The notes below the pieces were generated by a model. The model searched no databases. It saw nothing but the letters and a program-made list of their open reading frames with translations, and was not told the DNA's origin. 64,000 bases of DNA, taken from positions 33,609-97,608 of the forward strand of contig JAQBQD010000155.1 of assembly GCA_028287185.1 (NCBI GenBank). Direction: 5' to 3'. The translations under genes and the position numbers were made by a program. The stretch is from Gemmatimonadota bacterium. Lineage in GTDB: Bacteria > Gemmatimonadota > Gemmatimonadetes > Longimicrobiales > Longimicrobiaceae. Positions 18,667-54,571 of this stretch are shown here, piece by piece. Positions within the stretch are counted from its first letter, which is position 1. Every line of letters begins with the position of its first letter.

Positions 18667-18926
18667 GGGCTCGGAGACGGTGGAGAGGGGGCGGATGGGG
18701 CGTTCGGCAGGCGCGGAGGCCTCGGCCGGCCTCCGTCGTAAGGTGCCGGGCGGGGGTGGGAGCCGCAAGGATGGCGGGGAGGTTGGCGAAGGCGCTTGAC
18801 GCGATCAATGTACACACTCGAAAGCAGTGGCAACGCGCTTCGCTTTCTCGCGGTAACTCTGCACGCGTCGAGATCTTAACGGGTGCGGGTTAGGCGCTAT
18901 CAAGCCAGTGGGCTGCATCCGATAGC

Positions 18927-18961
18927 TACAAAACGGGGGACACTCAGATTAGGTGCCCCCC
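18927..18961 (-). terminator. Candidate rho-independent terminator (minus strand), 3' of the Ntn-hydrolase gene
   Basis: Minus-strand reading: GGGGGGCAC-ctaatctga-GTGTCCCCC followed by GTTTTGT; 8-9 bp GC stem plus U-tract. Confidence 0.35.
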
Positions 18962-19091
18962 GCGAACTATGATTCTCGTCTAGCGCTTGTTTGACCGCGA
19001 GCTACCGGTGTCGTGCAGGACGTGGGATGGAGTGGGATTATTCTCAGCCCACCGCTCAATCCAACGTATCTCCGCTTGAGTCAGCCGAGGA

Positions 19092-19101
19092 GGGGGGGGG
19101 G
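19092..19101. repeat. Homopolymeric G10 tract
   Basis: gaggaGGGGGGGGGGtag read directly; intergenic, about 55 bp 3' of the Ntn-hydrolase stop. Confidence 0.8.
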
Positions 19102-19155
19102 TAGTCTGCGTTTTCGGCGATGTCAGACTGCCCGGGAGCGGGCTCGGTGTATTTT

Positions 19156-20082
19156 TCATTCTTGCCTCCAGTTTGGGGGAGGTGTGTCCAATCTCGGTGG
19201 GTCAACAGGGTTCAACTCCCCAGGGTAATAGTGTTTCCGACTGACCCACTTAAACCCTTGGTGTCTAGTGATTGCGGCAATGTCAATCGGCGGTCCGACA
19301 ACGGGCGCGCCCGGTTTGAACCGCAAATAACCCGCCGTGACATCCGCCAAGTACTTCACCAGATCGATCGCATCTTGGATGGGCATACCCGGGTGCGCAA
19401 GCTGTGTTTCCGAGACAAGAATCGCGTCGGCAGCCTCATGTGTGAGCCCAGCCTCGACTAAGCGATCGTGGGCCTCGGCAGACCACCCGTAAACTAGGCG
19501 GTACAGGGCTTCTGGCTGGGCCCAAAATCGCACAATACCTGTCTGGCCAGCAGGCACGATCTGCGTGGGACCCTCGCAGACGCCGCCTTCATGGACTTCA
19601 ATGGTCCAGACCTCGGGAAGGTACGCATTGGCGGAGAACCCGGCAAGAACAAATCCGAGGGACGGACGCTCTGGCGCCGGACCGATGGGTGGTTGGTCCG
19701 TGTCTCCATCCGACGTACCCGGAGCGTGTGATGGTTGACCAAAGTGACTTACGTACAATTGATCGTAAAAGAATGTTTTTACCAATCCCGCAACTTCTTC
19801 CATCGTATACGTGCGGCGATCAATTTCCCACCCGGGTACGTCTTCGTCTTCACCACTCAACAAATCCCGGAGGACGCGAGCCAGGCTCGCAATTGACGTC
19901 CCAGCCATGCTCCCAAGACCCCAAGTCATCAGTCCGATGGGGAGGCCCTTAACCAGGTTGATCGTCTTCTCCGCATTGGAGTAAATGTTGTGGTAGCGCT
20001 CTCCCGGAAGGACAATCGACGTCGCACTGTCGGTTCCCAGCACCACCCCGTCACCAACAACAAGTGAAATCGCGATTGTCAT
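19156..20082 (-). CDS. Ntn-hydrolase, proteasome beta-subunit / HslV-like protein (solitary)
   Basis: 308 aa, MTIAISLVVGDGVVLGTDSATSIV... has a Thr at position 2 (putative N-terminal nucleophile after Met removal) and a proteasome-beta-like GxxxD/T...K context; lower-GC codon usage than neighbours. Confidence 0.55.
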   Translation of the reverse strand: MTIAISLVVGDGVVLGTDSATSIVLPGERYHNIYSNAEKTINLVKGLPIGLMTWGLGSMAGTSIASLARVLRDLLSGEDEDVPGWEIDRRTYTMEEVAGLVKTFFYDQLYVSHFGQPSHAPGTSDGDTDQPPIGPAPERPSLGFVLAGFSANAYLPEVWTIEVHEGGVCEGPTQIVPAGQTGIVRFWAQPEALYRLVYGWSAEAHDRLVEAGLTHEAADAILVSETQLAHPGMPIQDAIDLVKYLADVTAGYLRFKPGAPVVGPPIDIAAITRHQGFKWVSRKHYYPGELNPVDPPRLDTPPPNWRQE

Positions 20083-40180: not shown

Positions 40181-40380
40181 GCCGGCACCCGGGCTGAAGG
40201 ACGGCATACGACGTGGCAAACGGGACCGGATGCGGCATGCTGCATCCGGTCCTGCGTCGTTTCGGCGGTGGATACGTATTCGCGGAAGACGGTCATACAC
40301 GTAGCCTTCAGGGCGTGAACGCGTCCGGACGATCCACCACCGGCCGCGGCGTTCCGTCCACCCGTTCCGCCGCCCTTTCC

Positions 40381-41322
40381 ATGCGCCGCCTTCTCCCACT
40401 CCTCGCCGTGCTCCCGCTGCTTCCCTTCGCCGCGCCACCGTGGGCGAACGCGCAGGAGCTCATCCGCGACACACGCATCCGCGTGACGGCGCCGGGGCTC
40501 GCGCCGCAGCGCCAGGTCGGCCGCTTCGTCGGCATGCGGGGCGACACGCTGCTCGCCATGCTGGGCACCGACTCCACCGTCATGGCGCTGCCCACCGCCT
40601 CGCTGGCGCGGGTGGAGGCCAGCCGCGGGTCGCCGGCCCGGCGCGGGCGCGGTGCGCTGGTGGGCGCGGGCATCGGCGGCGCGGTGGCGTTCCTGACGGT
40701 CTACGCCATCGCCTCGCGGCCCGGCGCGGGCGAGGAGGACTATGCGAGCATCTTCGCGGTCCTGTTCGTGACGCCCGTCACCGTGGGCGGAGGCGCGATC
40801 ATCGGGGCCCTCTCCGCGCCGCGCCGCGAGCAGTGGAGCGTGGTGCGCGTCGCCGGCGTGGGCCTGGTGCCCGGCGCGCGCGTCCGCGTCTGGGCCGTGT
40901 CGCCGCGCCTGTACAGGGCGGACGCGACGCTGCAGCAGGTGCGGGGCGACACGCTCGTCCTGCGCGTCGGCGGCGGTCTCGTCACCGTGCCTGCCGACGC
41001 GGTCACGAGGCTGGACGTGCGGCAGGGCGGGGCGTCGTGGGGCCAGGGCGCCCGCCACGGCGCGGTGCGGGGGCTGCTGGTGGGTGGCGTGCTGGGCGCG
41101 GCAGGCGGCGCCGTCGTCTTCCCCGGCGACGACGCCTACGTCCGGTCCACGCTGGTGGGCCAGGGAATCATGATCGGGGTCGGCCTGGGCGCGACGCTCG
41201 GAGCGGTGGTGGGCGCCGTGCACCCGGGCGACGCATGGACGCCGTCGCGAACGCCCGTGCGCGTCACCGTCGGCCGCACCGTGGACGGAGGCACGAAGCT
41301 GGGCGCCAGCATCCGATTCTGA
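40381..41322 (+). CDS. Secreted glycine-zipper protein with internal duplication (paralog of 29300-29839)
   Basis: ATG at 40381, signal MRRLLPLLAVLPLLPFAAPPWANA; two copies of an RVrV..PG..GDTLvL..V.VPa.AVtRL module plus Gly-zippers (GAGIGGAVAF, GVLGAAGGAVV, GVGLGATLGAVVGAV). Confidence 0.5.
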   Translation: MRRLLPLLAVLPLLPFAAPPWANAQELIRDTRIRVTAPGLAPQRQVGRFVGMRGDTLLAMLGTDSTVMALPTASLARVEASRGSPARRGRGALVGAGIGGAVAFLTVYAIASRPGAGEEDYASIFAVLFVTPVTVGGGAIIGALSAPRREQWSVVRVAGVGLVPGARVRVWAVSPRLYRADATLQQVRGDTLVLRVGGGLVTVPADAVTRLDVRQGGASWGQGARHGAVRGLLVGGVLGAAGGAVVFPGDDAYVRSTLVGQGIMIGVGLGATLGAVVGAVHPGDAWTPSRTPVRVTVGRTVDGGTKLGASIRF

Positions 41323-41762: not shown

Positions 41763-42833
41763 TTACGCGTATCGACAGATGAGCAGCACGGCCAGCGCGA
41801 ATCCGCAGACGGTGGCGATACCCAGCCCGGTATCCAGCCGCTCCGCGCGGCGCTCCCCAAGGCGGTCGCCCAGGCGGAACACGGCCACGGAGGCGAGGAT
41901 CGAGAGGAAGACCACCGCCATCGCCAGCACGTGCAGCTTGTCCGTGAGGGTGAACTCGCCCGTCTCGGGCAGGCTGCCGGCCGCGACCACGTACGACGAC
42001 ACCACGCCGAACACGCTCGCCAGCCCCAGCCCCAGCCGCGCATCCACCTGCCTCGCGGAGAGCAGGGTGGCGAGAAAGCCGACGCCGACGGAGATGAACA
42101 TCACCAGGAAGGTCTTCAGGAAGATTCCGGCGCCGGGACGGCGAAGCGGGATGCCCAGCTCGAAGTGCGAGTACACCTCGTCCGCCGCGCCGGCCTCCTC
42201 GCTGCCCAGCGGCGGGTACGTGTGGCGTGTGGCGTCCACGCGCGCTGGGTCCAGGATCCAGCCCGGCAGCCGCACCCGGGGGTCCATCAGCGCCCAGCGG
42301 CGGTCGGGCACGTACGTCAGCTCGCGCACCGTGTGCTGTCCGTCCTCCACCATCACCCGCAGCACGTGCGCGTCCAGCGGATAGCGGCGCTGGTCCAGCG
42401 GCTCGTGGAAGCGGTACTGGCACCGGTAGGTGACGGACCTTCCCTTCGGTCCCGTGGACTCCGCCTCCTTGTCCTGCTGCTCGCGCGTGCCGTTCAGGAT
42501 GCTGAACCCGGTGGGGTCCACATCTCCCGTCCACTCGAACCACAGGTCGAAGTCCACGAAGTACGTGCCCGCCTTCAGGTTCACGTCGTACACGTCGCGC
42601 ACGTAGATCCCCACCCGCACCGGCTCCGGCCCGGCTTTCTCCGCCGCGGAAGGCGTCGCCGTCGAAGCCGACTCGCCGCGCCGCTCGACCCGTGCGCTGC
42701 GATCAGATCTCGAAGCAGTCGACGAGGTCTGCACGTCCGCCGGCGCTTGACCACCGAGAGGGGCCGGATGGACGACGAGAAGGAGGGCGGCGGCGAGCGG
42801 AAAGGCGGAACGACGGGCGGCGGAACGGAGCAT
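41763..42833 (-). CDS. Pentameric ligand-gated ion channel (pLGIC/Cys-loop-receptor-like) homolog
   Basis: ATG at 42831-42833; signal peptide MLRSAARRSAFPLAAALLLVVHPAPLGG; about 220-aa extracellular domain with an RYPLDAHVLRVMVEDG loop resembling the F/YPxD Cys-loop core; pre-M1 IPLRRPGAGIF then 4 C-terminal TM helices. Confidence 0.55.
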   Translation of the reverse strand: MLRSAARRSAFPLAAALLLVVHPAPLGGQAPADVQTSSTASRSDRSARVERRGESASTATPSAAEKAGPEPVRVGIYVRDVYDVNLKAGTYFVDFDLWFEWTGDVDPTGFSILNGTREQQDKEAESTGPKGRSVTYRCQYRFHEPLDQRRYPLDAHVLRVMVEDGQHTVRELTYVPDRRWALMDPRVRLPGWILDPARVDATRHTYPPLGSEEAGAADEVYSHFELGIPLRRPGAGIFLKTFLVMFISVGVGFLATLLSARQVDARLGLGLASVFGVVSSYVVAAGSLPETGEFTLTDKLHVLAMAVVFLSILASVAVFRLGDRLGERRAERLDTGLGIATVCGFALAVLLICRYA

Positions 42834-43049
42834 CGGGTCCGTGCGTCGGATGGGATCCGCGTTGGCCTGCGGGGACTGGATCGATCGGAAAGTACCGGTG
42901 GGACCGATGCTGCCCCGGCGATCGGCTGATGATGCCCGACGGCGCCGGACGCCGCCTCGCGCCAACGCCACGCACGATACGCAATGCGGACGATGGGCGC
43001 GAGAGCGGCGTGCTTCGACGGTGGGGCTTGAGTGGATGCGGCGCGCCGG

Positions 43050-43850
43050 CTACTCGGGCGCGGAGAAGCGGGCGAGCATCCCGCGCACGTCCTCCAGCGA
43101 GGCGCCGGGGTGCCGCTCGCGGATGAGCGCCACGATGCCGGCGATGTGCGGCGCCGCGAAGCTGGTGCCGCTGCGGGGGATGCGGCGGCCGCCCAGCCAC
43201 AGCACCGGCACCTCCAGGCCCCAGGCCAGGCACTCCATCGCCTCGTCGGGCCGATACCGGAAGGTGAAGGGAGAGTCGAGCTTGCCCGCGTCCACGCCCA
43301 CCGCGTTCTCGAAGACGGCGGGATAGCTCCAGCCGCCCACGTTGTTGCCCGCGGCCACCACGATGGTGCCCTGCCGCCGCGCGCGCTCGCACAGCACGTA
43401 CAGGTGGTCGCGAGTGTCGTCGCGGGTGGTGCCCAGGCTCATGTTCACCACGTCCACCCGCTCCTCCACCGCCCAGCGCAGCGCCTCGCACAGCACCGAG
43501 GGCGACGTCTCCAGCCCCGCGCCGAACACCCGCGCGGGCAGCACGCGCGCGTCCGGGGCCATGCGCAGGATCTGGTCGGCGCAGGCGGTGCCGTGGCCGT
43601 TACGGTCGCCGTCGTCGTCGCTGCGCCCCAGCGCCAGCTCGTCCGCCGTGCTGGCCAGGCCGATGCCGGGCAGCACGCGCGGCTCCGGCAGCGAGCGGTC
43701 CCACCCGCTGTCGATGACCGCCACCCGCACCCCGCGCCCCGTCGCGTCGCCCAGCTCGCGCGCCACCCACGCCGGCCGCGCCGTGGGCGGCGCCGGCTCG
43801 TACGGAAGCGAGGGAAGGGAGGTCCTCCGCGCGCCCGCCGTGCCGCTCAT
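43050..43850 (-). CDS. lanP: Subtilisin-like S8 serine protease, candidate lanthipeptide leader peptidase LanP
   Basis: ATG (cat 43848-43850) overlaps the HlyD stop (ATGA); catalytic triad motifs VAVIDSG (Asp), HGTACA (His), GTSFAAPH (Ser); 266 aa with no obvious signal peptide. Confidence 0.8.
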   Translation of the reverse strand: MSGTAGARRTSLPSLPYEPAPPTARPAWVARELGDATGRGVRVAVIDSGWDRSLPEPRVLPGIGLASTADELALGRSDDDGDRNGHGTACADQILRMAPDARVLPARVFGAGLETSPSVLCEALRWAVEERVDVVNMSLGTTRDDTRDHLYVLCERARRQGTIVVAAGNNVGGWSYPAVFENAVGVDAGKLDSPFTFRYRPDEAMECLAWGLEVPVLWLGGRRIPRSGTSFAAPHIAGIVALIRERHPGASLEDVRGMLARFSAPE

Positions 43851-45037
43851 TCGGGGCGTCCCTCCATGCGGTCCCACAGGTAGTCCCACACCAGCACGAT
43901 CACCCGGCCGCGGCGGGTCACGATCTGCCCCTCCACCGTGTAGCCGCGCCGGAACTTGTGGATGCCGATGCGGTCCAGCTGGCGCTGGTCCAGTCGCGCC
44001 GTCACCCGGTACAGGCCCCCCGCCTGCGGCACCCCGCCCGCCGCGGCGGCCGGCGACGCGGAGAGCGGCTCGGGGCTCACGTACACCACGCTGCCGCGCA
44101 GGCGCTCGTCCTCGTCGGCGTTGAAGGCCTGCACCTGCACCTGCACCGAGTCGCCGAGGCGGATGCGGTGCACGTCGCGCTCGCGCACCAGCAGGTTCAC
44201 CCGCCACCCGTCCAGGTCGGCCACCTCCAGCAGCTGGTCGCCCTCGCGCACGTAGCTGCCCGGCAGCCGCTCGATCTGCTCGGTCAGCACCACCCCGTGC
44301 GTGGGCGAGCGCAGCGACAACCGGCCCAGACGCTGGCGCAGCGCCGCGATCTGGGCCGTGAGCTGGGCCTGCTCCACCGTCCGCTTGTCGCGGTCGAAGC
44401 GTTCCAGCGCCAGCATGTCGCGCTGCGTGCCCCCCATGCGCACCTCCGACTCGGCGGCGCGCACCTCGGCCACGGCCAGGTCGATCGCCACGTGCTGGCC
44501 CACCCGGTAGGCCGCCAGCAGCGAGTCGGGATCGCTGCCCATCCCGTTCTCCACCATGCGCTGGCGCAGCCCGGCGCGCGCCGTCACCAGGTGGTTGCGC
44601 GCCTGCTCCACCTTCTCGTCCTGCTGCCGCACCTCCACCGGCGCCGCCCGCTCGGCCCGCGCCACGTCGATCTGCGATGCGCGGAGCTGCGCCTCCAGGC
44701 CGTCCAGGGTGGAGGCGAGCGCCAGCGGGTCCAGCCGCACCAGCTCGCGCCCGGCGGACACCGTGTCGCCCGTGCCCACCAGCACGCGGCTCACCGTGCC
44801 CGCCTCCTGCGCGCGCACCGGCCACACGCCCACGGGCTCCATGCTGCCCGCCGCCTTCACCGTCACGTGGATGGACACCAGGCACGCCACGGCCAGCGCC
44901 AGGGCGGTCAGCCCCGCCAGCGTGCCCAGGGTGAGGCCCACGGCGCGCTTCACGAAGCCGGCGCCGGGGTTGCCCTCGTCGCCCAGCGCGGGCAGCTCCA
45001 GCCGCAGGGGCGGCCGGTCCTTCGGCGCCGTGCTCAC
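43847..45037 (-). CDS. HlyD-family membrane fusion (periplasmic adaptor) protein of the lanthipeptide exporter
   Basis: GTG start (cac 45035-45037) overlapping the ABC stop (GTGA); N-terminal TM (AVGLTLGTLAGLTALALAVACLV), long coiled-coil, C-terminal beta domain; the upstream 829-aa six-frame ORF is artefactual. Confidence 0.8.
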   Translation of the reverse strand: MSTAPKDRPPLRLELPALGDEGNPGAGFVKRAVGLTLGTLAGLTALALAVACLVSIHVTVKAAGSMEPVGVWPVRAQEAGTVSRVLVGTGDTVSAGRELVRLDPLALASTLDGLEAQLRASQIDVARAERAAPVEVRQQDEKVEQARNHLVTARAGLRQRMVENGMGSDPDSLLAAYRVGQHVAIDLAVAEVRAAESEVRMGGTQRDMLALERFDRDKRTVEQAQLTAQIAALRQRLGRLSLRSPTHGVVLTEQIERLPGSYVREGDQLLEVADLDGWRVNLLVRERDVHRIRLGDSVQVQVQAFNADEDERLRGSVVYVSPEPLSASPAAAAGGVPQAGGLYRVTARLDQRQLDRIGIHKFRRGYTVEGQIVTRRGRVIVLVWDYLWDRMEGRPE

Positions 45038-46842
45038 GGCGTCTGCGCCACCGCGCGCAGGCGGCGCGCGTCGTCCACGCCGGCGCCCTGCAGCTGTCGG
45101 TAGGTCTCGCACTCCCGCATCAGCTCGGCGTGGGTGCCCGTGCCCACCACCCGGCCGGCCTCCACCACCACGATCTGGTCGGCCAGCGCCGCCGTGGCCA
45201 CGCGGTGGGTCACGAACAGCACCGTGCGCCCCTGGCCGCGGGCGAACAGGTCGCGCAGGATCTCCGTCTCCGTCTGCATGTCCACGTTGCTGGTGGCTTC
45301 GTCCAGCAGCAGCACCGGGGTGTCGCGGATGATGGCCCGCGCGATGGCCAGGCGCTGCCGCTGCCCGCCCGAGAGCGTGGCGCCCCACTCGGCGACGGAG
45401 GTGGCGTACCCGTTGGGCAGCCCCGCCACCAGCTCCTCCAGCCGGCACAGGCGCACGGCGTCGTCCACCCGCTCGCGCGAGGGCTCGTCCGCGCCCATGG
45501 TCAGGTTCTCCCAGATGGTGCCCTGCATGAGCGCGAACTCCTGCCACACCACCGAGGTCTGCCGGCGCAGGTCGGGCAGCGAGATCTTGCTCGCGGGCAC
45601 CCCGTCCAGGTACAGCTGCCCCTCGTCCGGCTCCTCCATGCGCGTCACCAGGCGCAGCAGCGACGACTTCCCGGCGCCGCTGGGGCCCACGATGGAGGTC
45701 ACGGTCCCGCGGGGAAAGTGCAGCGTCACGTCGTGCAGCACCCGCTTCTCGGCCGAGTAGCCGAACGACACGTCGCGCAGGTGGATGTCGCCGCGCATGC
45801 GGTGCGCCACGGGCGGCGCCGGCGCGTAGGCCTGCGCGGGGTCCTGCTCCACGGGCAGGTCCAGGTACTCGAACATGCGCCCCAGGTTCACGGCGCTCTG
45901 CTGGAAGTCCGAGAACAGCCCCGTGATCTGCGCCAGCGGGTTGTACAGGTATCCCATGTACGAGGTGAAGGCGATGTAGTCGCCCAGCGTCATCTCCTGG
46001 CGCAGGATGAGCATCCACGCGTACCACGTGAACACCGCCGTGCCCAGCGCGCGGATGGTGCCGTTGGCCAGCCCGAAGATCTGCCCGAAGCCGCCCGCCT
46101 TGAGCTGCACCTGCAGCGCGTCCTGCATCTGCCGCGCGGCCCGCGTGTACAGGTGGTGCTCCATCGCCAGCGCTTTCAGGGTGCGGATGTGGCTCAGCAC
46201 CTCCACCTGGAAGGCGCCCAGGTCGGCGTACGCCTCGGCGCTCCGCTTCCAGTAGCGGCGCAGCACCCGGGCCGAGAGCGTGGTCACCATCACCGTCAGC
46301 GGGATGGTGATGAGCGACACGATGGCCAGCTTCCACTGCAGGAGGAAGAGGAAGGGCGGCACCAGCAGCAGGTAGACGCCGTTCACGAACAGCGTCTCGA
46401 ACACCTTGCTCACGCTGTTCAGCGAGCTGCGCACGTCGGCGAAGCGGCTCATCACCTCGCCCACCCGATGCTCGTCGAAGAAGCGCACCGTCAGGTGCTG
46501 CAGGTGGTTGAAGAAGAGCAGCCCGGTGGCGTTGGAAAGGTGCGAGGTGGTGTAGGTGGTGAAGTAGCCCCGGATGGCGCCCATCACCGTCCCGGCGATG
46601 GTGAACGCGAAGGTGCCCAGCACCAGCATCTCCATCAGCGGCACGTTGCGCGCCGGGTAGGCCTGGTCGATGAGCAGCTTGGACAGGTACGGCGGAAGCA
46701 TGCCGAACACGCCCAGCACCAGCCCCAGGGCCATCCCCTTCATGAGGGGGCCCCAGTACGGGCGGATCAGCCGCAGCAGCCGGAAGAACTGCTGGAAGGC
46801 TTCCCGCAGCGGCGGGATGTCGGCACGGGCGGCGGGCGGCAT
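45034..46842 (-). CDS. lanT: ABC exporter (fused TMD-NBD, no N-terminal C39 peptidase domain), candidate LanT
   Basis: 602 aa; six TM helices then Walker A GPSGAGKSS, signature LSGGQRQR, Walker B LLLDEATS; absence of a C39 domain is consistent with a separate LanP (class I). Confidence 0.85.
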   Translation of the reverse strand: MPPAARADIPPLREAFQQFFRLLRLIRPYWGPLMKGMALGLVLGVFGMLPPYLSKLLIDQAYPARNVPLMEMLVLGTFAFTIAGTVMGAIRGYFTTYTTSHLSNATGLLFFNHLQHLTVRFFDEHRVGEVMSRFADVRSSLNSVSKVFETLFVNGVYLLLVPPFLFLLQWKLAIVSLITIPLTVMVTTLSARVLRRYWKRSAEAYADLGAFQVEVLSHIRTLKALAMEHHLYTRAARQMQDALQVQLKAGGFGQIFGLANGTIRALGTAVFTWYAWMLILRQEMTLGDYIAFTSYMGYLYNPLAQITGLFSDFQQSAVNLGRMFEYLDLPVEQDPAQAYAPAPPVAHRMRGDIHLRDVSFGYSAEKRVLHDVTLHFPRGTVTSIVGPSGAGKSSLLRLVTRMEEPDEGQLYLDGVPASKISLPDLRRQTSVVWQEFALMQGTIWENLTMGADEPSRERVDDAVRLCRLEELVAGLPNGYATSVAEWGATLSGGQRQRLAIARAIIRDTPVLLLDEATSNVDMQTETEILRDLFARGQGRTVLFVTHRVATAALADQIVVVEAGRVVGTGTHAELMRECETYRQLQGAGVDDARRLRAVAQTP

Positions 46843-47058
46843 CGGCGGAACGTCACTCCAGGGCTTGCGCGGGCGCGGAGGAGCCGGATCGCTCCCGCCG
46901 GGTCCGCGGAGGGCGGCCAGAAACGGCGCGATTCGCCTTTCCGGCCATCATCCAACATAACCAGAACGCTCTCCCACGCACCACTGCCTCCGCGGCGGAG
47001 GACCGGACGTCCGGCGGGAGCCTTCCCGGCCCCGCCGGCGCCCGGTCCCGCGGGCGGC

Positions 47059-47319
47059 TCAGCACTCGCAGGTCTGCGCGCAGGTGAAGCAGGTGGGGCG
47101 GCACGAGATGCCGCACGACTCGTTCGCCTGGCAGGTGTCGACGAGCGTGCAGTCGCCGCACCCGGTGTACGCGCACGACTCCTCGTCCGTGCAGAAGTAG
47201 GTGCTGCACACCCCGTCGCGCGACAGGTGCGCGTGCACCGTCCCGCGCTCCGGCTCCGCCGCCGCCGTCTCGAACGAGTCCACCGACAGCGCGTCCAGGT
47301 CCAGCCTCAGCTTGCGCAT
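47059..47319 (-). CDS. lanA: Lanthipeptide precursor peptide LanA2: FNLD-type leader + very Cys-rich core (12 Cys, 12 Ser/Thr in about 51 aa)
   Basis: ATG at 47317-47319 with gggagg RBS 7 nt upstream; MRKLRLDLDALSVDSFETAAAEPERGTVHAHLSRDGV | CSTYFCTDEESCAYTGCGDCTLVDTCQANESCGISCRPTCFTCAQTCEC; leader resembles nisin/subtilin leaders (FNLDLVSV / FDLDVVKV). Confidence 0.7.
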   Translation of the reverse strand: MRKLRLDLDALSVDSFETAAAEPERGTVHAHLSRDGVCSTYFCTDEESCAYTGCGDCTLVDTCQANESCGISCRPTCFTCAQTCEC

Positions 47320-47348
47320 GCAAACCTCCCGCTCACGGGTGTCCGCGC

Positions 47349-47454
47349 GGGCCGCGGCACCTCCGCGGCCCGAACCGGCCCGCGGTGCCCGCGGGCCTTT
47401 CCGTCCGGCAGGGGAAGGGACGCGGGGCGGGTGGAAAGGCGCCCGCCCCGCGTC
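47349..47454 (-). other. Three consecutive GC-rich stem-loops in the lanA1-lanA2 intercistronic spacer
   Basis: gggccgcgg-cacct-ccgcggccc (47349-47371), ggcccgcgg-tgc-ccgcgggcc (47378-47398), gacgcggggcggg-tggaaaggcg-cccgccccgcgtc (47419-47454); the last one follows the lanA1 stop by about 10 nt. Confidence 0.6.
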
Positions 47455-47464
47455 TCCGAAAAGG

Positions 47465-47761
47465 TCAGACGCAGTCGTACGGGAAGCCGCCGCCGGGCGC
47501 CGCGGCGGCGCCGGGGGCCAGGCCGCAGCCGTTGAAGGTCTCCGGCGGCGACGCGCCGCAGGTGCCGCCGTAGCTGTACCCGCACTGCGCCCACCCCGTG
47601 TCGGGGCACACCTGCACGACCGAGTCCGGACAGTCCGCCGTGTCGCAGAAGGCGGTGCCCACCATCCGGAGCCCCAGCACCGTTCCCCGTCCGCGCCCCG
47701 CCTCCGCCGTCTCGAACGTCTCCACGTTCAGGTCCTCGAGGTCCAGCCGCAGCTTTCTCAT
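47465..47761 (-). CDS. lanA: Lanthipeptide precursor peptide LanA1: FNLD-type leader + Cys/Gly-rich core (7 Cys, 8 Ser/Thr)
   Basis: ATG at 47759-47761 with aaggag RBS; MRKLRLDLEDLNVETFETAEAGRGRGTVLGLRMVG | TAFCDTADCPDSVVQVCPDTGWAQCGYSYGGTCGASPPETFNGCGLAPGAAAAPGGGFPYDCV; first about 28 aa are near-identical to LanA2. Confidence 0.7.
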   Translation of the reverse strand: MRKLRLDLEDLNVETFETAEAGRGRGTVLGLRMVGTAFCDTADCPDSVVQVCPDTGWAQCGYSYGGTCGASPPETFNGCGLAPGAAAAPGGGFPYDCV

Positions 47762-47885
47762 GGGGCTCCTTCCGTTCTGGGTGATGAGGGTACCCGGGCC
47801 TGCAACCTGCCTCCACCGGTTCCGAAGCGCGGCGCGCCCCGACCGACGGCGCTGGACCGGCGGAGGACCGGCCGGGCTCCGGACG

Positions 47886-49907
47886 TCAGCCCGGCACGCC
47901 CGCCCCGGCCGGCTCGCTCTCCACGAACCCGGCGCGGTAGGCCTGCCGAAGCTGCTCCAGCACGCGGCCCCGCAGCCAGTCGCGGTCGGGCGCGCGGTCG
48001 CCGGACACGGCCTCGGCCACGCGGTCCACCACGTCGTCCAGGAGCGCGGAGCCGCGCGTCGCTTCCAGCACCACGGCGGCGAAGGGCGTCAGCCGGCGCT
48101 CCACCACCTTTCCTCCGATGGACTGCAGGAGCACGAACACGTCGTCCTCGGGCGGCAGGGGCTCGCCGGCCGCGTCCTCCAGCCAGCCGTCCCAGTCGCG
48201 GAGGGAGTGGACGAGCCGCGCGCGGGGCGAGAGCGCGAAGGCGGCCTCGTCCCACGCCACCTCGTCCTCCTCCGCGCGCACCAGCGAGGCGATGAACTCC
48301 GCCGTGTTGTCCTCCACCGCCCGCCACAGCTCCACCCGCGCCAGGTCCAGCCGGGCCGCGTCCTCCAGCAGCGCAGCGCGGTCGCCGCCGCCCTCGGCGG
48401 AGATCCGGGCCTTCACGCCGTCGACCGCGGCGGCGACGGGCGAGCGTTCGCGGTTCCCGTCCGCCGCCGCCGCGGCGCGCACGGCGGCGCCATCCGCCCC
48501 CACCGCGGTGAAGGTCCGCAGCGTACGCCCCAGGTAGCCGTCCACGTCGGCCCCGCGGGCCTCGCGGCGGCCGGGCTCGGCCGCCGCGCGGTCGGGGTGC
48601 GCGCCGTCGCGGGTGACGAGGAGGACGGAGGGGACCTCCGGCAGCGCCAGGCGCAGCAGGAACCACCCGATGCCGGACTCGCCCAGCAGCAGGCCGGGGT
48701 CGGAGACTCCTCCCAGGGTGCCGCAGGGCCAGCTCACCCCGGGCCGCTCCCAGCGCTCCACGCCGGTCAGCATGCAGTCCTCCGCCGTCGTCCGCAGCGT
48801 GTCGTCGCCCAGCACGCGCGCGCCGTACAGCAGCGTCTCGCAGTTGCCCGCGCGGCCATGGCAGAGCGAGTAGTTCATCCGGTCGTCCACGATGGAGGCG
48901 AGCGTGGCGCGGAGGGCGGCCTCCGCCTCGTCGCGGTACAGGGGCTCGCCCAGCAGCTCCCACGCGCGCAGCCGGGTGAGGCCGATGCCGGGCGCGCCGT
49001 GGCACCACGCGCTCATGTGGCGCGGCTCGTAGGCGGGAAATCCCTCGGGGCTCGCGATCCGGCGGCGCAGCTCGTCGATGCGGCCGGCGTGCAGGTACTC
49101 GGACAGGTCGCTGTGGCGCAGGTCGGGCCAGTTGTCGTGCTCGGCGCTGAAGGTGCGCCGCTCGTAGACGAAGGCCTGCTCCGCGCCGTGCAGCCAGTGC
49201 CCCTCGCCGGTGGCGTCGTACAGCTCCAGCAGCGCGTGCCCGAAGCCCGCCGCGCCGTGCGCCAGCCCGTTCAGGTTGCGGGCGGACGACTGCGGCATGG
49301 TGGCCCACGACCACCCGTCGGGCTCGCGCACGGCCGTGGCCAGCAGGTTGTCGCCCATGCGCTGCGCCCGCTCCAGCATCCACGCGCCGTCCAGCTCGTC
49401 CGCCATCGCCAGCAGGGCGGGGATGGCGCCCGCCGCGCCGGCGATCACGTCCAGCCCGCGGTCCTGCGCCTCGGCGCCCTCCAGCGGCGCCAGCGTGCGG
49501 CGGGCGGCATCCCGCATCTCCTCCATCCCCAGCAGCTTCGCGGCGCGCAGGGCGGCGTAGGCGATGCCCACGCGGCCCGAGTGGAAGCCGTTCGAGCCGG
49601 GGGGTAGCCCGTCGGCCTCGGCCAGCGAGAAGCGCAGGGCCCCGGCGGCGGCGCGGGCCGCCTCGCGGTCTCCGGTGGCGGCGGCGAGCTGGGCCAGGAA
49701 GAGGGCGATGCCCGCCGTGCCCTCGTAGACGGTGCCCCCGGCGCGGGCGGGCACCGCCACGCGGGCGGCCTGGTTGTCGCGGTCGGGGCTCATCACCTGC
49801 CAGGTGCAGGCGTCGCCCTCCCACAGCGCCTGGGACGCCACGCGCGCGCCGATGCGCGCGGCCGCGTCCAGCAGCGCGCCGCTGCGGGGGTTCTCCGGGT
49901 TGGGCAT
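47886..49907 (-). CDS. lanC: LanC-type lanthipeptide cyclase with about 240-aa C-terminal extension of unknown function
   Basis: ATG at 49905-49907 (MPNPENPRSGALLDAAARIG...); LanC zinc-ligand/active-site motifs GLAHGAAGFGHALLEL, WCHGAPGIGL, LCHGRAGNCE; ORF continues about 240 aa beyond the usual LanC end without any Met. Confidence 0.8.
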   Translation of the reverse strand: MPNPENPRSGALLDAAARIGARVASQALWEGDACTWQVMSPDRDNQAARVAVPARAGGTVYEGTAGIALFLAQLAAATGDREAARAAAGALRFSLAEADGLPPGSNGFHSGRVGIAYAALRAAKLLGMEEMRDAARRTLAPLEGAEAQDRGLDVIAGAAGAIPALLAMADELDGAWMLERAQRMGDNLLATAVREPDGWSWATMPQSSARNLNGLAHGAAGFGHALLELYDATGEGHWLHGAEQAFVYERRTFSAEHDNWPDLRHSDLSEYLHAGRIDELRRRIASPEGFPAYEPRHMSAWCHGAPGIGLTRLRAWELLGEPLYRDEAEAALRATLASIVDDRMNYSLCHGRAGNCETLLYGARVLGDDTLRTTAEDCMLTGVERWERPGVSWPCGTLGGVSDPGLLLGESGIGWFLLRLALPEVPSVLLVTRDGAHPDRAAAEPGRREARGADVDGYLGRTLRTFTAVGADGAAVRAAAAADGNRERSPVAAAVDGVKARISAEGGGDRAALLEDAARLDLARVELWRAVEDNTAEFIASLVRAEEDEVAWDEAAFALSPRARLVHSLRDWDGWLEDAAGEPLPPEDDVFVLLQSIGGKVVERRLTPFAAVVLEATRGSALLDDVVDRVAEAVSGDRAPDRDWLRGRVLEQLRQAYRAGFVESEPAGAGVPG

Positions 49908-49945
49908 GGGGGCCACGCTCGCTTCTCCTGCCGGTGACGGGGGGC

Positions 49946-50917
49946 TCACGCCGTGGCCTCTGCGCCGGCCGGGGCCGGCACCGCCAGGGCGCGGTGGATC
50001 AGGTACGCCAGGTACGACTCCTCCTGGATGCTGACGCCCAGGCGGTTGTTCATCATGTGCACGTAGCTGGGCACGATGGCCGCGACGGCGAACTCCCAGG
50101 TGTCGATCGCCCCGCCCTCGCGAAGCAGTCGCCCGGCGTCGAACAGCTCGCGGAAGCGGACGCGCACCTCCGCCAGGTCGTCGCGCCAGCGGTCCAGCGC
50201 CTCGGAGAGCTCCTCGCCCGTCGCCAGTCGCTCCCAGGCCTCGTCCACGTACGCCGTCAGGTTCCCCGCCTGCTGCTCGAAGCCGCTGCCGAAGGCGTCC
50301 AGCCACGCGCTACGCCGCTCGTCGTCGGGCACCATCGAGCGCAGGTAGTTGATGCCGTACTGCCGCGCGAACTCCGCGGCCGCTGTGCGCTCGGGGTGGA
50401 AGGCGTGCACCAGCACCACCATCGCCAGCAGCCCCTTGCCCAGGCGGCCGCTGCGCTCGGTGGGGTGCACGCGCGCCAGCAGGGCCAGCGCGGCTTCGCT
50501 GGAGCGGTGGAAGAGCTCTTCCGCCAGCAGCACGCCGTCGGGGCCGCCGTAGCGCTCCGTCTCCGGCTCGTACACCGCCTCGGCCACGTGCGTCACCCCC
50601 TCGCCGCCGCTGCCGATGGGCTCCGGATAGCCCTCCTGAAGGTCGGGATACAGGGCCGCCAGGTGCCTGCGCAGCGCGGGCCTCACCTCGCGCTCCAGCA
50701 CGTCGCGCTCGCCGTGGAACCGCAGCCGCACGTGGAAGCCGCGCTCGCTGTAGCGGATGAAGAACCACCGGTCGGCCCACCCGCGCTCGGCGCAGGCGCG
50801 GACGAACGGCTCCACGGCGTCGCGCACGATGGCGTCGCAGTCCCCGCCGTAGATGTTCTCGCGCAGGAACAGGTACTCGCTCAGCCAGGCCTTCTCCATC
50901 TCAGGCGAGGGCGGCAT
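49946..50917 (-). CDS. lanB: Lanthipeptide dehydratase, glutamate-elimination domain (Lant_dehydr_C/SpaB_C-like); stand-alone ORF of a split LanB
   Basis: 323 aa; MPPSPEMEKAWLSEYLF...WFFIRYSERGFHVRLRFHG matches the WF(F/Y)IRY...H(L/V)RLR start of LanB C-terminal domains; overlaps the upstream ORF by 17 nt in a different frame. Confidence 0.75.
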   Translation of the reverse strand: MPPSPEMEKAWLSEYLFLRENIYGGDCDAIVRDAVEPFVRACAERGWADRWFFIRYSERGFHVRLRFHGERDVLEREVRPALRRHLAALYPDLQEGYPEPIGSGGEGVTHVAEAVYEPETERYGGPDGVLLAEELFHRSSEAALALLARVHPTERSGRLGKGLLAMVVLVHAFHPERTAAAEFARQYGINYLRSMVPDDERRSAWLDAFGSGFEQQAGNLTAYVDEAWERLATGEELSEALDRWRDDLAEVRVRFRELFDAGRLLREGGAIDTWEFAVAAIVPSYVHMMNNRLGVSIQEESYLAYLIHRALAVPAPAGAEATA

Positions 50918-53900
50918 GCGCCTCCCCCCGCGCGGGCGCGGCGCCGGCGTTCGCGGTCCCCTCCGGAAAGTCGAGCTGCACCACCATCTCCGTGGCCCAG
51001 CGCCCGCCGGCCACCTCGGCCAGCGCGTCGGGCCCGGGCAGGCGCTCCTCCACGATCACGTTGAAGTGCTTCACCCCCGCGGCCAGCTTGCCCAGCAGCC
51101 CCACCAGCAGCGGGTTGCCAAAGTCCATGAACTGCGGCTTGTAGAAGTCGCGCGACGGCGTGGTCACCTTCACCGGCGGGCCCTTCGCGTCGTCCTCCGC
51201 CTTCGCTCCCTCGGCCTCGGCCGCCTTCGCCGCCTCGGGCTGCTCCGGCTCGTCCGCGGCGGGCATCGCCTCGGCGCCCACGTTCATGGCCGCCTCCTGG
51301 GCGTCCATCGCCGCCGGCGTCTCGTCCCCCGGCTTCTTGGCCGCGGGGTCCGGAATGGGGATCATCCGCACGTAGCAGCTTTCCGGCAGCCCCGCGTCGC
51401 GCCGCCAGCGGGTGGCGCGCACGAAGAAGTCGGCGGCCGTCTCGTCCGCCGCGCGCTGCGGGACGAGGACGCCCGGCACCAGCCACCGCCGCCGGGTCAC
51501 CAGCACCCGCCCGCCTATGGAGATGCGCGGCCGGTGCGAGATCTCCGGCGGGGCAGGGGGCGGCGCCTCGGCCTTCGTCTCCTCGGCGGACGCATCCTCC
51601 GCGGTCGCCGCCTCAGCTCCGGCGTCCGCCGAGGCGATGGAATCCGTGGCCTCGCCGTCCGCCGTCTTCGCGACCCCATCGGACGCAACCACCTGCGCAG
51701 CGGCGGACGCTTCCGGCGCCGCGGCGTCCGCGGTATCGGGAGATGCGACGCCCTCCACGGGGGCGGCCGTATCCGCAGCCGCATCGACCGGCACGCCGTC
51801 GGCCGGCGGAGCCGGGCGCGGCGGGTTGACGGGCGTCTCGGGCACGGACGGCGCGAAGGTGACGGGCGGGGTGAAGCGCGACAGGAGCTGGTACAGCGGC
51901 GGCCGCATGCGCGGGTTCAGGAACCCCAGGTCCACGGGGATCACCCGCCGGCCGCTGGGCCCGTGGCGCAGGGCGAGCGAGTGCGGGTCCTCGGGATCCG
52001 GCTCCACGAACAGGTCCGAGCTGCGGAGCTGGTCGGCCGCGTCGCCGCTCTCGCCCGTGGGGTAGCTGATCTCCCAGCGCATCAACGAGGGGTGCAGGTT
52101 GGCGTTGAACTGCGCATCGCCGCAGATCTCCGCCAGCAGCTCGTCCGTGAGCGCCTGGTTGCCGGCGCGCACCTCCTCCAGGAAGTCTTCCGGCAGCATG
52201 TACAGGAAGCGCGAGAAGTACTTGCCGTACCCCGCGGTGTAGCTGCCGCTCTGCAGCAGGAAGGCGGGGTCGCCCCCCTCCTCGCGCGGGGGCACCAGCA
52301 GGGTGAACGCGCTCACGGAGCGGCACGGCGCCGGCTGCGGCTCGACCCCCGCCAGGGCCTCCTCCACCTCGGCCAGCGGGATCGTGACCTCGGCCGCGTC
52401 GGGCGCCTCGCGCCAGCGCGCCACGATGCGCTCCTGCAGCCGCATGCGCGCCTCGTTGAGCGCCTGGATAAAGGGCAGCTTGAAGGGGTTGTTGACGTCG
52501 TATCCCTCCAGCGCCGCCTTGTCCGCCCCGCCGCGCGCCTTCTGCTCCTTCTCCACGTGCGCCTTGAAGTGCTCGCGGTAGAAGTCCTCGTAGAACTGCA
52601 AAAGCGGCACGCCGTGCCGGTCGCCGTACTGCATGTCGAAGAAGTGCCGCATGGTGGCCTGCTCGGCCCGCGGCCACGCCAGGCGCGAGGTGAGGCGCGC
52701 CCAGTCCACCAGCGCGTCCGTGGCCCGACGCACGCCGGGCGTGAGCGCCACGGTGGCGTCCGCGTCGGCCGTGGCGTCCTCGTAGAACGGCATGTCCTTC
52801 CGCAGGCGGGCCTTCACCTCCATGGCCGTGAACGCCTCGTCGATGGCGGCGTGGATCTCGGCCACCACGGCCTCGCGCCTCTCCACCGGCGCCGCCGCGT
52901 AGGCGTCCGTGCGCTCTCGCACCTGGCGCAGCAGGGCGGCGGCGCGCGTGGCGTGCTCGTCGTCCAGCGCGTCCAGCAGCGCGGCGAAGGGCAGGTCCCA
53001 GTCGGCGTCCTGCTCGCGGATGCCGGTGTGGAAGCGCAGGAAGCCGATCTCGATCAGCTTCTCCAGGTACGCCTCCGCCTCCTCGGTGCTGGCGTCGATC
53101 TGCGGATCGCGCGTCAGCCGGTCCACCAGGTCGCCCAGCGTGGGCGCCGGGTCGGCGGCGAACACCTGCGTGATCACCTGCAGCACCTCGTTGGCGGCCA
53201 CGCGCTGGAACACCTCGCGCCCCTGCACGGCCGACAGGAAGACCAGGCGGGCGCCCTCGGTGCGCAGCGTGGGGTTGGGCTCCACCACCAGCCGCCGCCG
53301 CACGCCGGGCCGCTCCTTGAGGTGATCCAGCAGGATGCCGTACAGCAGCTTGTTGATGCGCACGAAGCTGCGCTTGGCCCGGGGGTCGCCGTGCAGGCGC
53401 AGCAGGCCGCCCTCGCCGTCCTCCGCCGCCCCGTCCTCGGTGAAGCGGCCGGGGACCACGGCGCAGAACGCCGCGAAGGGCGTCGCCTTCATGGCCATGC
53501 GCGTGTAGTAGCGCAGCAGCCCGCGCTCCGTCTTCTCGTCCTTGCCCGAGAGCGCGCCGGCCGTTCCCGCCGTGTAGCGGTCCAGCGACGCGTGCAGCGA
53601 ACGGCTGGACACCAGCAGCCCCTTCCGGAACTCCGGATCGCGCAGCAGCTGGCGGAAGGCCGCCCGGGCCGTTCCGCTCTCCTCGCCGTACGCCGCCGCC
53701 ACCTCCGCCGCCAGCGCGTCGCGCTCCACCAGCGCCTGCTGCAGCGCTCCAACCTCGGATGCCTGCTCGGTGGAGAGCTGCGCGCAGGCGCCTTCCAGCA
53801 CCTCCGCCGGCAGCGGACGCAGGTTGAACAGCTCGCGCCGGGCGCGCAGCAGGCGTTTGCGCGCCGCGCCGTCGTCCCCCGCCGCGCCGATGGCGGCGAA

Positions 53901-54116
53901 CAGCAGGGCCGAGACGGCCTCGCGGCGCTCCGCGAGCGCGTCCTCGGCCGCCAGCAGCGCGTCCAGGCGCTCCAGCGTGCGGGTGGCGCGCATCTGCTCG
54001 ACGCCGTCCACCGGCGCGCCCGAGATCCGGCATACGAAGCGGCGCACCAGGCGCTCGGCCTCCCGCCCGGGGCGGTCCTCGTTCCAGGTGTCGGCGGTCA
54101 CTTCGGCGTTCTCCAT
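50901..54116 (-). CDS. lanB: Lanthipeptide dehydratase, glutamylation domain (Lant_dehydr_N-like) with long Ala/Pro/Asp/Glu-rich low-complexity inserts
   Basis: ATG at 54114-54116 (MENAEVTADTWNEDRPG...); motif YYTRMAMKATPFAAFCAV corresponds to the conserved Y.TRM..R.TPFGLF of LanB; 1071 aa; the upstream part of the 1144-aa six-frame ORF is non-coding-like. Confidence 0.75.
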   Translation of the reverse strand: MENAEVTADTWNEDRPGREAERLVRRFVCRISGAPVDGVEQMRATRTLERLDALLAAEDALAERREAVSALLFAAIGAAGDDGAARKRLLRARRELFNLRPLPAEVLEGACAQLSTEQASEVGALQQALVERDALAAEVAAAYGEESGTARAAFRQLLRDPEFRKGLLVSSRSLHASLDRYTAGTAGALSGKDEKTERGLLRYYTRMAMKATPFAAFCAVVPGRFTEDGAAEDGEGGLLRLHGDPRAKRSFVRINKLLYGILLDHLKERPGVRRRLVVEPNPTLRTEGARLVFLSAVQGREVFQRVAANEVLQVITQVFAADPAPTLGDLVDRLTRDPQIDASTEEAEAYLEKLIEIGFLRFHTGIREQDADWDLPFAALLDALDDEHATRAAALLRQVRERTDAYAAAPVERREAVVAEIHAAIDEAFTAMEVKARLRKDMPFYEDATADADATVALTPGVRRATDALVDWARLTSRLAWPRAEQATMRHFFDMQYGDRHGVPLLQFYEDFYREHFKAHVEKEQKARGGADKAALEGYDVNNPFKLPFIQALNEARMRLQERIVARWREAPDAAEVTIPLAEVEEALAGVEPQPAPCRSVSAFTLLVPPREEGGDPAFLLQSGSYTAGYGKYFSRFLYMLPEDFLEEVRAGNQALTDELLAEICGDAQFNANLHPSLMRWEISYPTGESGDAADQLRSSDLFVEPDPEDPHSLALRHGPSGRRVIPVDLGFLNPRMRPPLYQLLSRFTPPVTFAPSVPETPVNPPRPAPPADGVPVDAAADTAAPVEGVASPDTADAAAPEASAAAQVVASDGVAKTADGEATDSIASADAGAEAATAEDASAEETKAEAPPPAPPEISHRPRISIGGRVLVTRRRWLVPGVLVPQRAADETAADFFVRATRWRRDAGLPESCYVRMIPIPDPAAKKPGDETPAAMDAQEAAMNVGAEAMPAADEPEQPEAAKAAEAEGAKAEDDAKGPPVKVTTPSRDFYKPQFMDFGNPLLVGLLGKLAAGVKHFNVIVEERLPGPDALAEVAGGRWATEMVVQLDFPEGTANAGAAPARGEAHAALA

Positions 54117-54571
54117 CGTCACCGGAAGGATCTGTTGCGGCAGAATGTGGCAGAAACAGGCAGGCGCGCCGGCCGCGCTGGTCTCGCGGCAGGAATCGGC
54201 CTGCCGAGCAGCCGTGGGCCGAGCCAGGATATGCGATACAAAGCGCTTACGGATGATATTCGCGGAGCCCAAATCTCGCAAGCCGCCGCCATTTGCGTAG
54301 GGCCGCACCCGTCCGCGCCCACCATCCCAGATCACCAGCAGCCATCTCGTTGCTCCTGCGCCCCTTCCGTCTTTTCAGACGCCCGCAGGCGATCGAGTCT
54401 CTGGAACGCCGGCGAATTCTCCACGTCGCAAAGGGAGCGAACCATACATCAGAAATCGACTGGACCGGCTACAGGTGTTTCGATCCCCGGCATGTCTCCC
54501 GTGCTCGGAGCTCGAGGCCCCTCGTCGAAAGAAGTCCGGCCCTTCCGTCCCCGCTGACGGCGTGCGGAGCG

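Follow-up and report, generated by a model that had tools for sequence, protein, structure and literature searches.

A gene that resembles those for pentameric ligand-gated ion channels, here called pLGICs, lies directly downstream of a lanthipeptide gene cluster in a 64,000-nucleotide stretch of contig JAQBQD010000155.1 from a Gemmatimonadota bacterium (hereafter the window, to which all positions refer). This arrangement raises the question of whether the gene encodes a channel subunit and, if so, whether it serves the cluster or simply adjoins it. The first-pass annotation, made from the sequence alone, had suggested a channel homolog and had offered a role in immunity or sensing, with mere neighbourhood as the fallback. 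It was found that the protein is a bacterial pLGIC subunit of the GLIC/ELIC type, on which profile, fold and motif evidence agree. The neighbouring genes at 43050–54335 on the minus strand form a pinensin-like class I lanthipeptide cluster. Very probably the pLGIC gene stands alone and merely adjoins the 3′ end of this cluster, which ends at an S8 peptidase gene. Coordinates are collected in the table below.

The gene and the fold of its product

The window has a GC content of ∼72% and contains long spurious open reading frames (ORFs) in all frames. Because such ORFs are abundant at this composition, codon-position GC was used for the calling of real genes. In DNA of this kind the pLGIC frame itself could be a chance ORF with no gene behind it. 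But at 41763–42600 the pLGIC frame was the single one with a coding pattern, with a GC content of 0.86–0.94 at third and 0.39–0.53 at second codon positions. Moreover, homologs with 24–79% identity were found in many metagenomes. Fourteen of them (alignment A1, 24–79% identical) served as the source of a profile, and in an exhaustive search of 1.84 billion representatives this profile matched 8,911 of them at E ≤ 1e-3; for 882 the E-value was 1e-30 or lower. The chance-ORF explanation was refuted by these results, its probability being practically nil; the gene is real and intact. Its enclosing ORF runs from 41763 to 42971, and the ATG at 42833 was chosen as the start since the homologs and the NCBI record begin there. 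The resulting product is 100% identical to that record, JWM27_3510, which was deposited as a "hypothetical protein" from a Gemmatimonadetes metagenome-assembled genome (MAG). The taxonomically labelled relatives (P0006 and L009) belong to Longimicrobiaceae/Longimicrobium. The clade as a whole is large and mostly unannotated, and its members come mainly from environmental metagenomes and MAGs.

When searched against the PDB, the A1 profile found ELIC and GLIC chimeras, GLIC, ELIC and GABA-A/glycine receptor (GlyR) chimeras with E-values of 1e-23 to 1e-27, the match to ELIC itself having an E-value of 3.5e-23 and that to GLIC ∼1e-23. The alignment covered β1–β2 and then β6 through M4, with a gap between β2 and β6. 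With the single sequence, phmmer matched a GLIC–GlyR chimera at 6e-7 and GLIC itself at ∼5e-3; the best single PDB matches were chimeras with GABA-A α1 or GlyR α1 transmembrane domains (TMDs). In addition, the NCBIfam model LGIC_1 matched the protein at 2.4e-9.

In the hydropathy profile a single hydrophobic segment stood out at the N-terminus, and four transmembrane segments towards the C-terminus. The AlphaFold2 monomer model, with a predicted local distance difference test score (pLDDT) of 77, exhibited a β-sandwich and four helices, as the first-pass annotation had anticipated. The N-terminus is signal-peptide-like, of the Sec type, as judged from a hydropathy peak centred at aa 18–19, a composition of three K/R and no D/E, and a short model helix at aa 10–21. 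The pLDDT fell below 50 across aa 21–66. Only here and in the 79% relative is the linker that follows the signal-like segment long; most A1 homologs have a gap there. About ten β-strands were modelled within aa 70–231, mostly with pLDDT of 88–97, to form the extracellular domain (ECD); in family members that have been characterised, the equivalent domain binds the ligand. An ECD of about 220 aa had been expected, but the folded domain was found to be only ∼165 aa long, preceded by the signal-like segment and a disordered linker of ∼38 aa. The transmembrane helices were placed at aa 236–257 (M1), 263–287 (M2), 296–325 (M3) and 327–355 (M4), and the M3–M4 link was very short, with almost no cytoplasmic loop. 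The 50 best Foldseek matches of the model in the PDB were all pLGIC chains (GLIC, GlyR and GABA-A receptor), aligned over ∼320 columns with E-values of 6e-21 to 7e-19 and TM-scores of 0.56–0.74. The proposed GLIC/ELIC architecture was thus confirmed by profile, fold, Foldseek and motifs, including the four transmembrane helices with a pre-M1 arginine in IPLRRPGAGIF (aa 228–238) and the YPLD core at aa 151–154.

Signature residues, pore and likeness to known channels

The residue register was taken from a hidden Markov model (HMM) alignment to GLIC, and the reference set from Table 1 of Jaiteh et al. 2016 (PMC4795631); residue frequencies were based on 60 sampled clade members (alignment A2). 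Of the seven residues that are most conserved in the superfamily, six were present (Y151, P152, D154, W192, R232 and P289). The exception was V244, which replaces the kink proline at M1 14′ (aligned with P204 of GLIC and YLP of GABA-A α1), the most conserved transmembrane position, occupied by proline in 77% of the superfamily (PMC4795631). The motif [F/Y]PxD at the tip of the β6–β7 loop is the superfamily signature, and its proline is the sole absolutely conserved residue (PMC4795631). In the YPLD motif here, P152 and D154 were invariant in A1 and conserved in 60/60 and 58/60 members of A2. Also invariant in A1 were W192, the β9 tryptophan of the ECD core, and P289, the proline of the M2–M3 loop, with W in 48 and P in 58 of the 60. 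R232 aligned with R192 of GLIC; arginine was found at this position in 50/60 relatives and histidine in 10/60. In known structures this pre-M1 arginine pairs with the aspartate of the Pro-loop. Like other bacterial members, the protein has no Cys-loop disulfide pair: the sole cysteine, C138, precedes the loop, in a column that holds V/I in 43/60 relatives, and no cysteine follows YPLD.

In M2, the YEAN of GLIC aligned with VDAR, and the PAR of GABA-A α1 with DAR. An acidic residue at −2′ (D264, aligned with E222 of GLIC) was shared by 50/60 relatives, arginine at 0′ (R266) by 55/60 and phenylalanine at 9′ (F275) by 53/60. Since the −2′/−1′ positions are charge-selectivity filters in the pLGIC superfamily, the residues at −2′, 0′ and 9′ indicate that the pore is probably cation-selective, with a Phe hydrophobic gate. 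R266 and F275 also fit the conserved set of the reference table, and Phe at 9′ is a minority state there (13%, PMC4795631). Five copies of the subunit would assemble around M2, where the D264 ring, the small residues at 2′ and 6′ (G, A) and the F275 girdle would make a cation-selective pore that a hydrophobic gate closes; a small molecule, an ion or a pH change in the periplasm may then open it. Loop C (aa 207–218) was variable across the family and poorly modelled, and prediction of an agonist was therefore rejected.

Among characterised relatives, GLIC of Gloeobacter violaceus (PDB 3EAM/4HFI) is a proton-gated channel with an ECD of ∼190 aa. It shares with the present protein the absence of an N-terminal helix, a Cys-less Pro-loop, four transmembrane helices with a minimal M3–M4 link, the acidic −2′ residue and a Foldseek TM-score of up to 0.74. 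However, the identity is only ∼18–21%; the present protein has Phe instead of Ile at 9′, Arg instead of Asn at 0′ and Val in place of the M1 kink proline, and its ECD is shorter and preceded by the long disordered linker. V277 stands at the aligned position of the GLIC histidine at 11′, which we take to be part of the GLIC proton response, and no sign of proton gating was seen here. ELIC (Dickeya/Erwinia, amine-/GABA-gated, PDB 2VL0/2YKS) is likewise prokaryotic and Cys-less, and was matched by the profile about as strongly; in contrast, conservation of its aromatic amine-binding box was not evident here, loop C being variable, and the genomic context is unrelated. The eukaryotic Cys-loop receptors (GABA-A, glycine, nicotinic and 5-HT3) have the same fold, an arginine at 0′ and, in the M2–M3 loop, an LP motif, and the TMD aligned well with those of GABA-A α1 and GlyR α1. 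Unlike these receptors, the present protein has neither the Cys-loop disulfide nor a cytoplasmic M3–M4 domain, and the −2′ position, which is Pro in the anion-selective ones, is Asp.

Several findings have to be set against the assignment. First, no Neur_chan match was obtained by Pfam (PF02931/PF02932), even at E ≤ 10. An HMM search with these two models was the check that the first-pass annotation had proposed, and this part of it formally refutes the claim, while LGIC_1, phmmer, the A1 profile and Foldseek were all positive. Of the 60 sampled clade members, 20 matched PF02931 and 8 matched PF02932 at E ≤ 1e-3. Given these matches, the missing Pfam match was regarded as a failure of model sensitivity. 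The search at E ≤ 10 also gave a sub-threshold match to DUF998 in the transmembrane region, which was treated as spurious hydrophobic similarity. Second, the LGIC_1 score was 37 bits, compared with an equivalog-style cut-off of 500. Third, V244 stands in place of the M1 14′ proline. This replacement, together with the compact ECD, the profile gap between β2 and β6 and the missing Pfam match, could also mean that the pLGIC fold is retained without gated channel function, in a receptor that has degenerated or a membrane sensor that does not conduct. However, ∼23% of pLGICs lack the M1 14′ proline (PMC4795631), and the position varies within the clade (G 19, P 12, A 9, T 8 and V 5 of 60); V244 is therefore no bar to pLGIC membership. 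The strong conservation across the clade of the pore and coupling residues, namely the 0′ arginine, the 9′ phenylalanine, the acidic −2′ residue, the M2–M3 proline and the pre-M1 arginine, argues for a working pore and for coupling between ECD and TMD, and a loss of channel function is considered unlikely.

The lanthipeptide cluster and its 3′ boundary

As noted in the first-pass annotation, the pLGIC gene is co-directional with the upstream protease gene; the S8 stop lies at 43050 and the spacer is exactly 216 bp. In contrast to this gap, all four intra-cluster junctions checked were overlaps, of 4 bp for LanB_C/LanC, ABC/HlyD (GTGA) and HlyD/S8 (ATGA) and of 17 bp for LanB_N/LanB_C. Searches of these 216 bp found neither an inverted repeat nor an ORF lying wholly within them, and the RNA fold was unexceptional (z −0.83). 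A consensus scan of the spacer detected neither a σ70-like promoter nor an intrinsic terminator, so that co-transcription by read-through from the cluster may occur.

Two observations thus speak against a stand-alone gene: the spacer without promoter or terminator, and the closest relative, P0002 (79% identity), in which a co-directional gene likewise lies 211 bp upstream, on a 2,278-bp contig. The pLGIC could have been recruited to the cluster in this lineage and be expressed by S8 read-through; in the periplasm it would sense the mature peptide, for autoinduction or a stress response, or it would serve for immunity or as a decoy. Its co-directional position directly downstream of S8 would fit, as would the gene tables of homologous clusters, in which no recognisable LanI, LanFEG or LanRK was found and immunity and sensing are left unaccounted for. 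But the overlapping junctions make the 216-bp spacer look large, and the synteny on both sides of it argues against recruitment.

On the pLGIC side, 17 homolog loci with 29–67% identity were compared, several with 10-kb flanks on contigs of 37–272 kb. When genome and metagenome collections were scanned for patterns from the family alignment, 6 and 4 loci were obtained, far below the true family size; for this reason the sample comprised 17 loci and not hundreds. By tblastn, LanB, LanC, ABC, HlyD and S8 genes were found in 0/17 of these loci. The neighbours varied by lineage and included SIR2 with nSTAND-WD40 genes, pentose-phosphate genes, glyoxalases, cyanophycin synthetase and antitoxin-like genes. 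The sole neighbour in common was a 5′-nucleotidase on the pLGIC side away from the cluster, which was 85% identical in locus L001. This suggests that the pLGIC gene belongs to the chromosomal backbone and that its upstream side is a variable region. In L001–L003 the 5′-nucleotidase (L001) was all that was shared with the window beyond the pLGIC. Counterparts of DUF427, NIF3, bactofilin and M23, the housekeeping genes beyond LanB in the window, were found in none of these three loci, and the exact insertion boundary of the cluster could therefore not be drawn.

On the cluster side, the four loci with the closest S8 homologs (67–74% identity; L019 shorter, L020–L022 long) had the gene order LanB-LanB_C-LanC-(2–7 precursor-like ORFs)-ABC-HlyD-S8. 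S8 was the terminal cluster gene in 4/4, and a pLGIC gene was present in 0/4. The genes after S8 were unrelated ones that differed from locus to locus and lay mostly on the opposite strand (MamF_MmsF, a polyketide synthase acyltransferase, an unannotated 325-aa gene and, in L019, a PI-PLC-like gene). L002, a pLGIC locus, and L020, a cluster locus, came from one metagenome on separate contigs, and the partner gene was absent from the 10-kb flanks of each. As for P0002, a query with the C-terminal 180 aa of S8 returned no 181-aa protein from its contig, although cut genes are possibly outside the searched collection. Even if the upstream gene of P0002 were S8, conservation among such close relatives would reflect shared ancestry.

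LanI, LanFEG and LanRK resemble the pLGIC only in position, as membrane or periplasmic proteins at the edge of a lanthipeptide cluster, and show no homology to it. Pfam and NCBIfam gave no LanI, LanFEG, LanH or LanRK homology for the protein, only channel-family or spurious DUF matches. A text search of the library consulted found no paper that joins ligand-gated ion channel, lanthipeptide and gene cluster. Conserved co-occurrence of pLGIC and lan genes is not supported, in the 17 pLGIC loci or in the four homologous clusters, and recruitment in this lineage is decidedly unlikely. The suggested tie to the cluster through immunity or sensing is thus not supported, and the comparative evidence favours the fallback that the channel is simply a neighbour. 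The stand-alone pLGIC gene would form its own transcription unit, or at least lie outside the cluster.

Some further observations concern these loci. Upstream of the pLGIC homolog in L001 (2978–9804) lie SIR2_2 and two nSTAND1-WD40 NTPase genes, a defence-island-like arrangement; with defence-like genes there and a lanthipeptide cluster here, the region upstream of the pLGIC may be a hotspot of variable cargo. In the window, a 369-aa gene and the 5′-nucleotidase gene lie on the non-cluster side, both converging on the pLGIC gene. The 369-aa gene was absent from L001, whose corresponding position is taken by a PI-PLC-like gene. The PI-PLC-like gene after S8 in L019 (5300–5815) and that after the pLGIC homolog in L001 (11249–12109) were 49% identical over 81 aa. 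If the two were orthologous, the cluster in L019 would sit at this same site of the chromosome, with no pLGIC present; the similarity is too weak for certainty.

The cluster itself contains a split LanB and a LanC in which the LANC_like Pfam match spans ∼370 aa, leaving ∼240 aa at the C-terminal end unmatched. Both precursor peptides carry the leader MRKLRLDL(D/E)xLxV(D/E)xFET, and their cores are very different: the 86-aa precursor has 12 Cys and many Ser/Thr within its C-terminal ∼50 residues, and the 98-aa precursor has 6 Cys and a Gly/Pro/Ala-rich tail. The pinensin leader model matched only the first (86-aa) precursor, weakly and below the cut-off (E 5.8e-4). The S8 peptidase, of a family with >2,400 homologs, matched the NCBIfam model QhpE at 5e-39, below the cut-off, and no signal peptide was evident by eye from its sequence. 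The same cluster architecture was seen to recur in Longimicrobiaceae-type metagenome contigs, with 2–7 tandem precursor-like genes of ∼100 aa each. Elsewhere in the window, the GC content dipped to 0.63 at 18001–20000, compared with ∼0.72 elsewhere. This dip surrounds a 308-aa minus-strand ORF (19156–20082) without a Pfam match, which is flanked by a cNMP-binding methyltransferase-like gene on one side and an Hsp90 (HtpG) gene on the other. Scans for tRNA and Rfam elements found none in the whole window, the region of the GC dip included.

Table. Features of the pLGIC gene, its product and the neighbouring genes, with positions in the window
Feature	Position	Strand	Basis or remark
pLGIC (Pro-loop receptor) subunit gene	41763–42833	minus	356 aa + stop; start ATG at 42833, stop at 41763–41765; ORF, third-position GC, homology, AlphaFold2/Foldseek
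Signal-peptide-like N-terminus, aa 1–28	42750–42833	minus	basic n-region, hydrophobic core FPLAAALLLVV
Disordered Ser/Ala/Arg-rich linker, aa 29–66	42636–42749	minus	pLDDT
Periplasmic β-sandwich domain, aa 67–232	42138–42635	minus	AlphaFold2 strands; aligned to GLIC ECD
Pro-loop motif Y151-P152-L153-D154	42372–42383	minus	aligned to GLIC YPFD
Four-helix transmembrane domain, aa 233–356	41766–42137	minus	AlphaFold2 helices, hydropathy; aligned to GLIC, GABA-A α1 and GlyR α1 TMDs
M2 pore helix	41973–42047	minus	D264 (−2′), A265 (−1′), R266 (0′), G268 (2′), A272 (6′), F275 (9′), S279 (13′)
S8–pLGIC spacer, 216 bp	42834–43049	minus	S8 stop at 43050; genes co-directional
Small S8 (subtilisin-like, QhpE-like) peptidase gene	43050–43850	minus	PF00082, E 1.4e-24; last cluster gene
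HlyD-type adaptor gene	43847–45037	minus	Pfam; 57–75% identical to L019–L022 genes
ABC exporter gene	45034–46842	minus	Pfam; 80–90% identical to L019–L022 genes
Precursor peptide gene, 86 aa	47059–47319	minus	translation, frame plot
Precursor peptide gene, 98 aa	47465–47761	minus	translation, frame plot
LanC gene, 687 aa	47886–49949	minus	Pfam
LanB elimination domain gene	49946–50917	minus	Pfam; LanB thus split
LanB glutamylation domain gene	50901–54335	minus	Pfam set PF05147/PF14028/PF04738 for the LanB–LanC region
369-aa gene	40213–41322	plus	no Pfam/NCBIfam match; convergent with pLGIC gene

Meaning for the pLGIC family and for genome mining

The biological role is known for no prokaryotic pLGIC (PMC4795631), so that a genuine link of one to a natural-product cluster would have been of value; the comparison made here speaks against it. 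It is highly improbable that the pLGIC, read through from the lanthipeptide operon, serves in the periplasm as a receptor for the mature Cys-rich lanthipeptide or for a by-product, which would couple production to membrane potential or ion flux in self-sensing or immunity. If true, a bacterial pLGIC would for the first time have been assigned a physiological role and a peptide agonist. For the mining of genomes, the 3′ boundary of the pinensin-like cluster is the S8 peptidase gene. For the pLGIC family, the 60 sampled members of the clade show Phe at 9′, an acidic residue at −2′ and variation at M1 14′, and a "hypothetical" protein without a Pfam domain can now be assigned as a pLGIC subunit.

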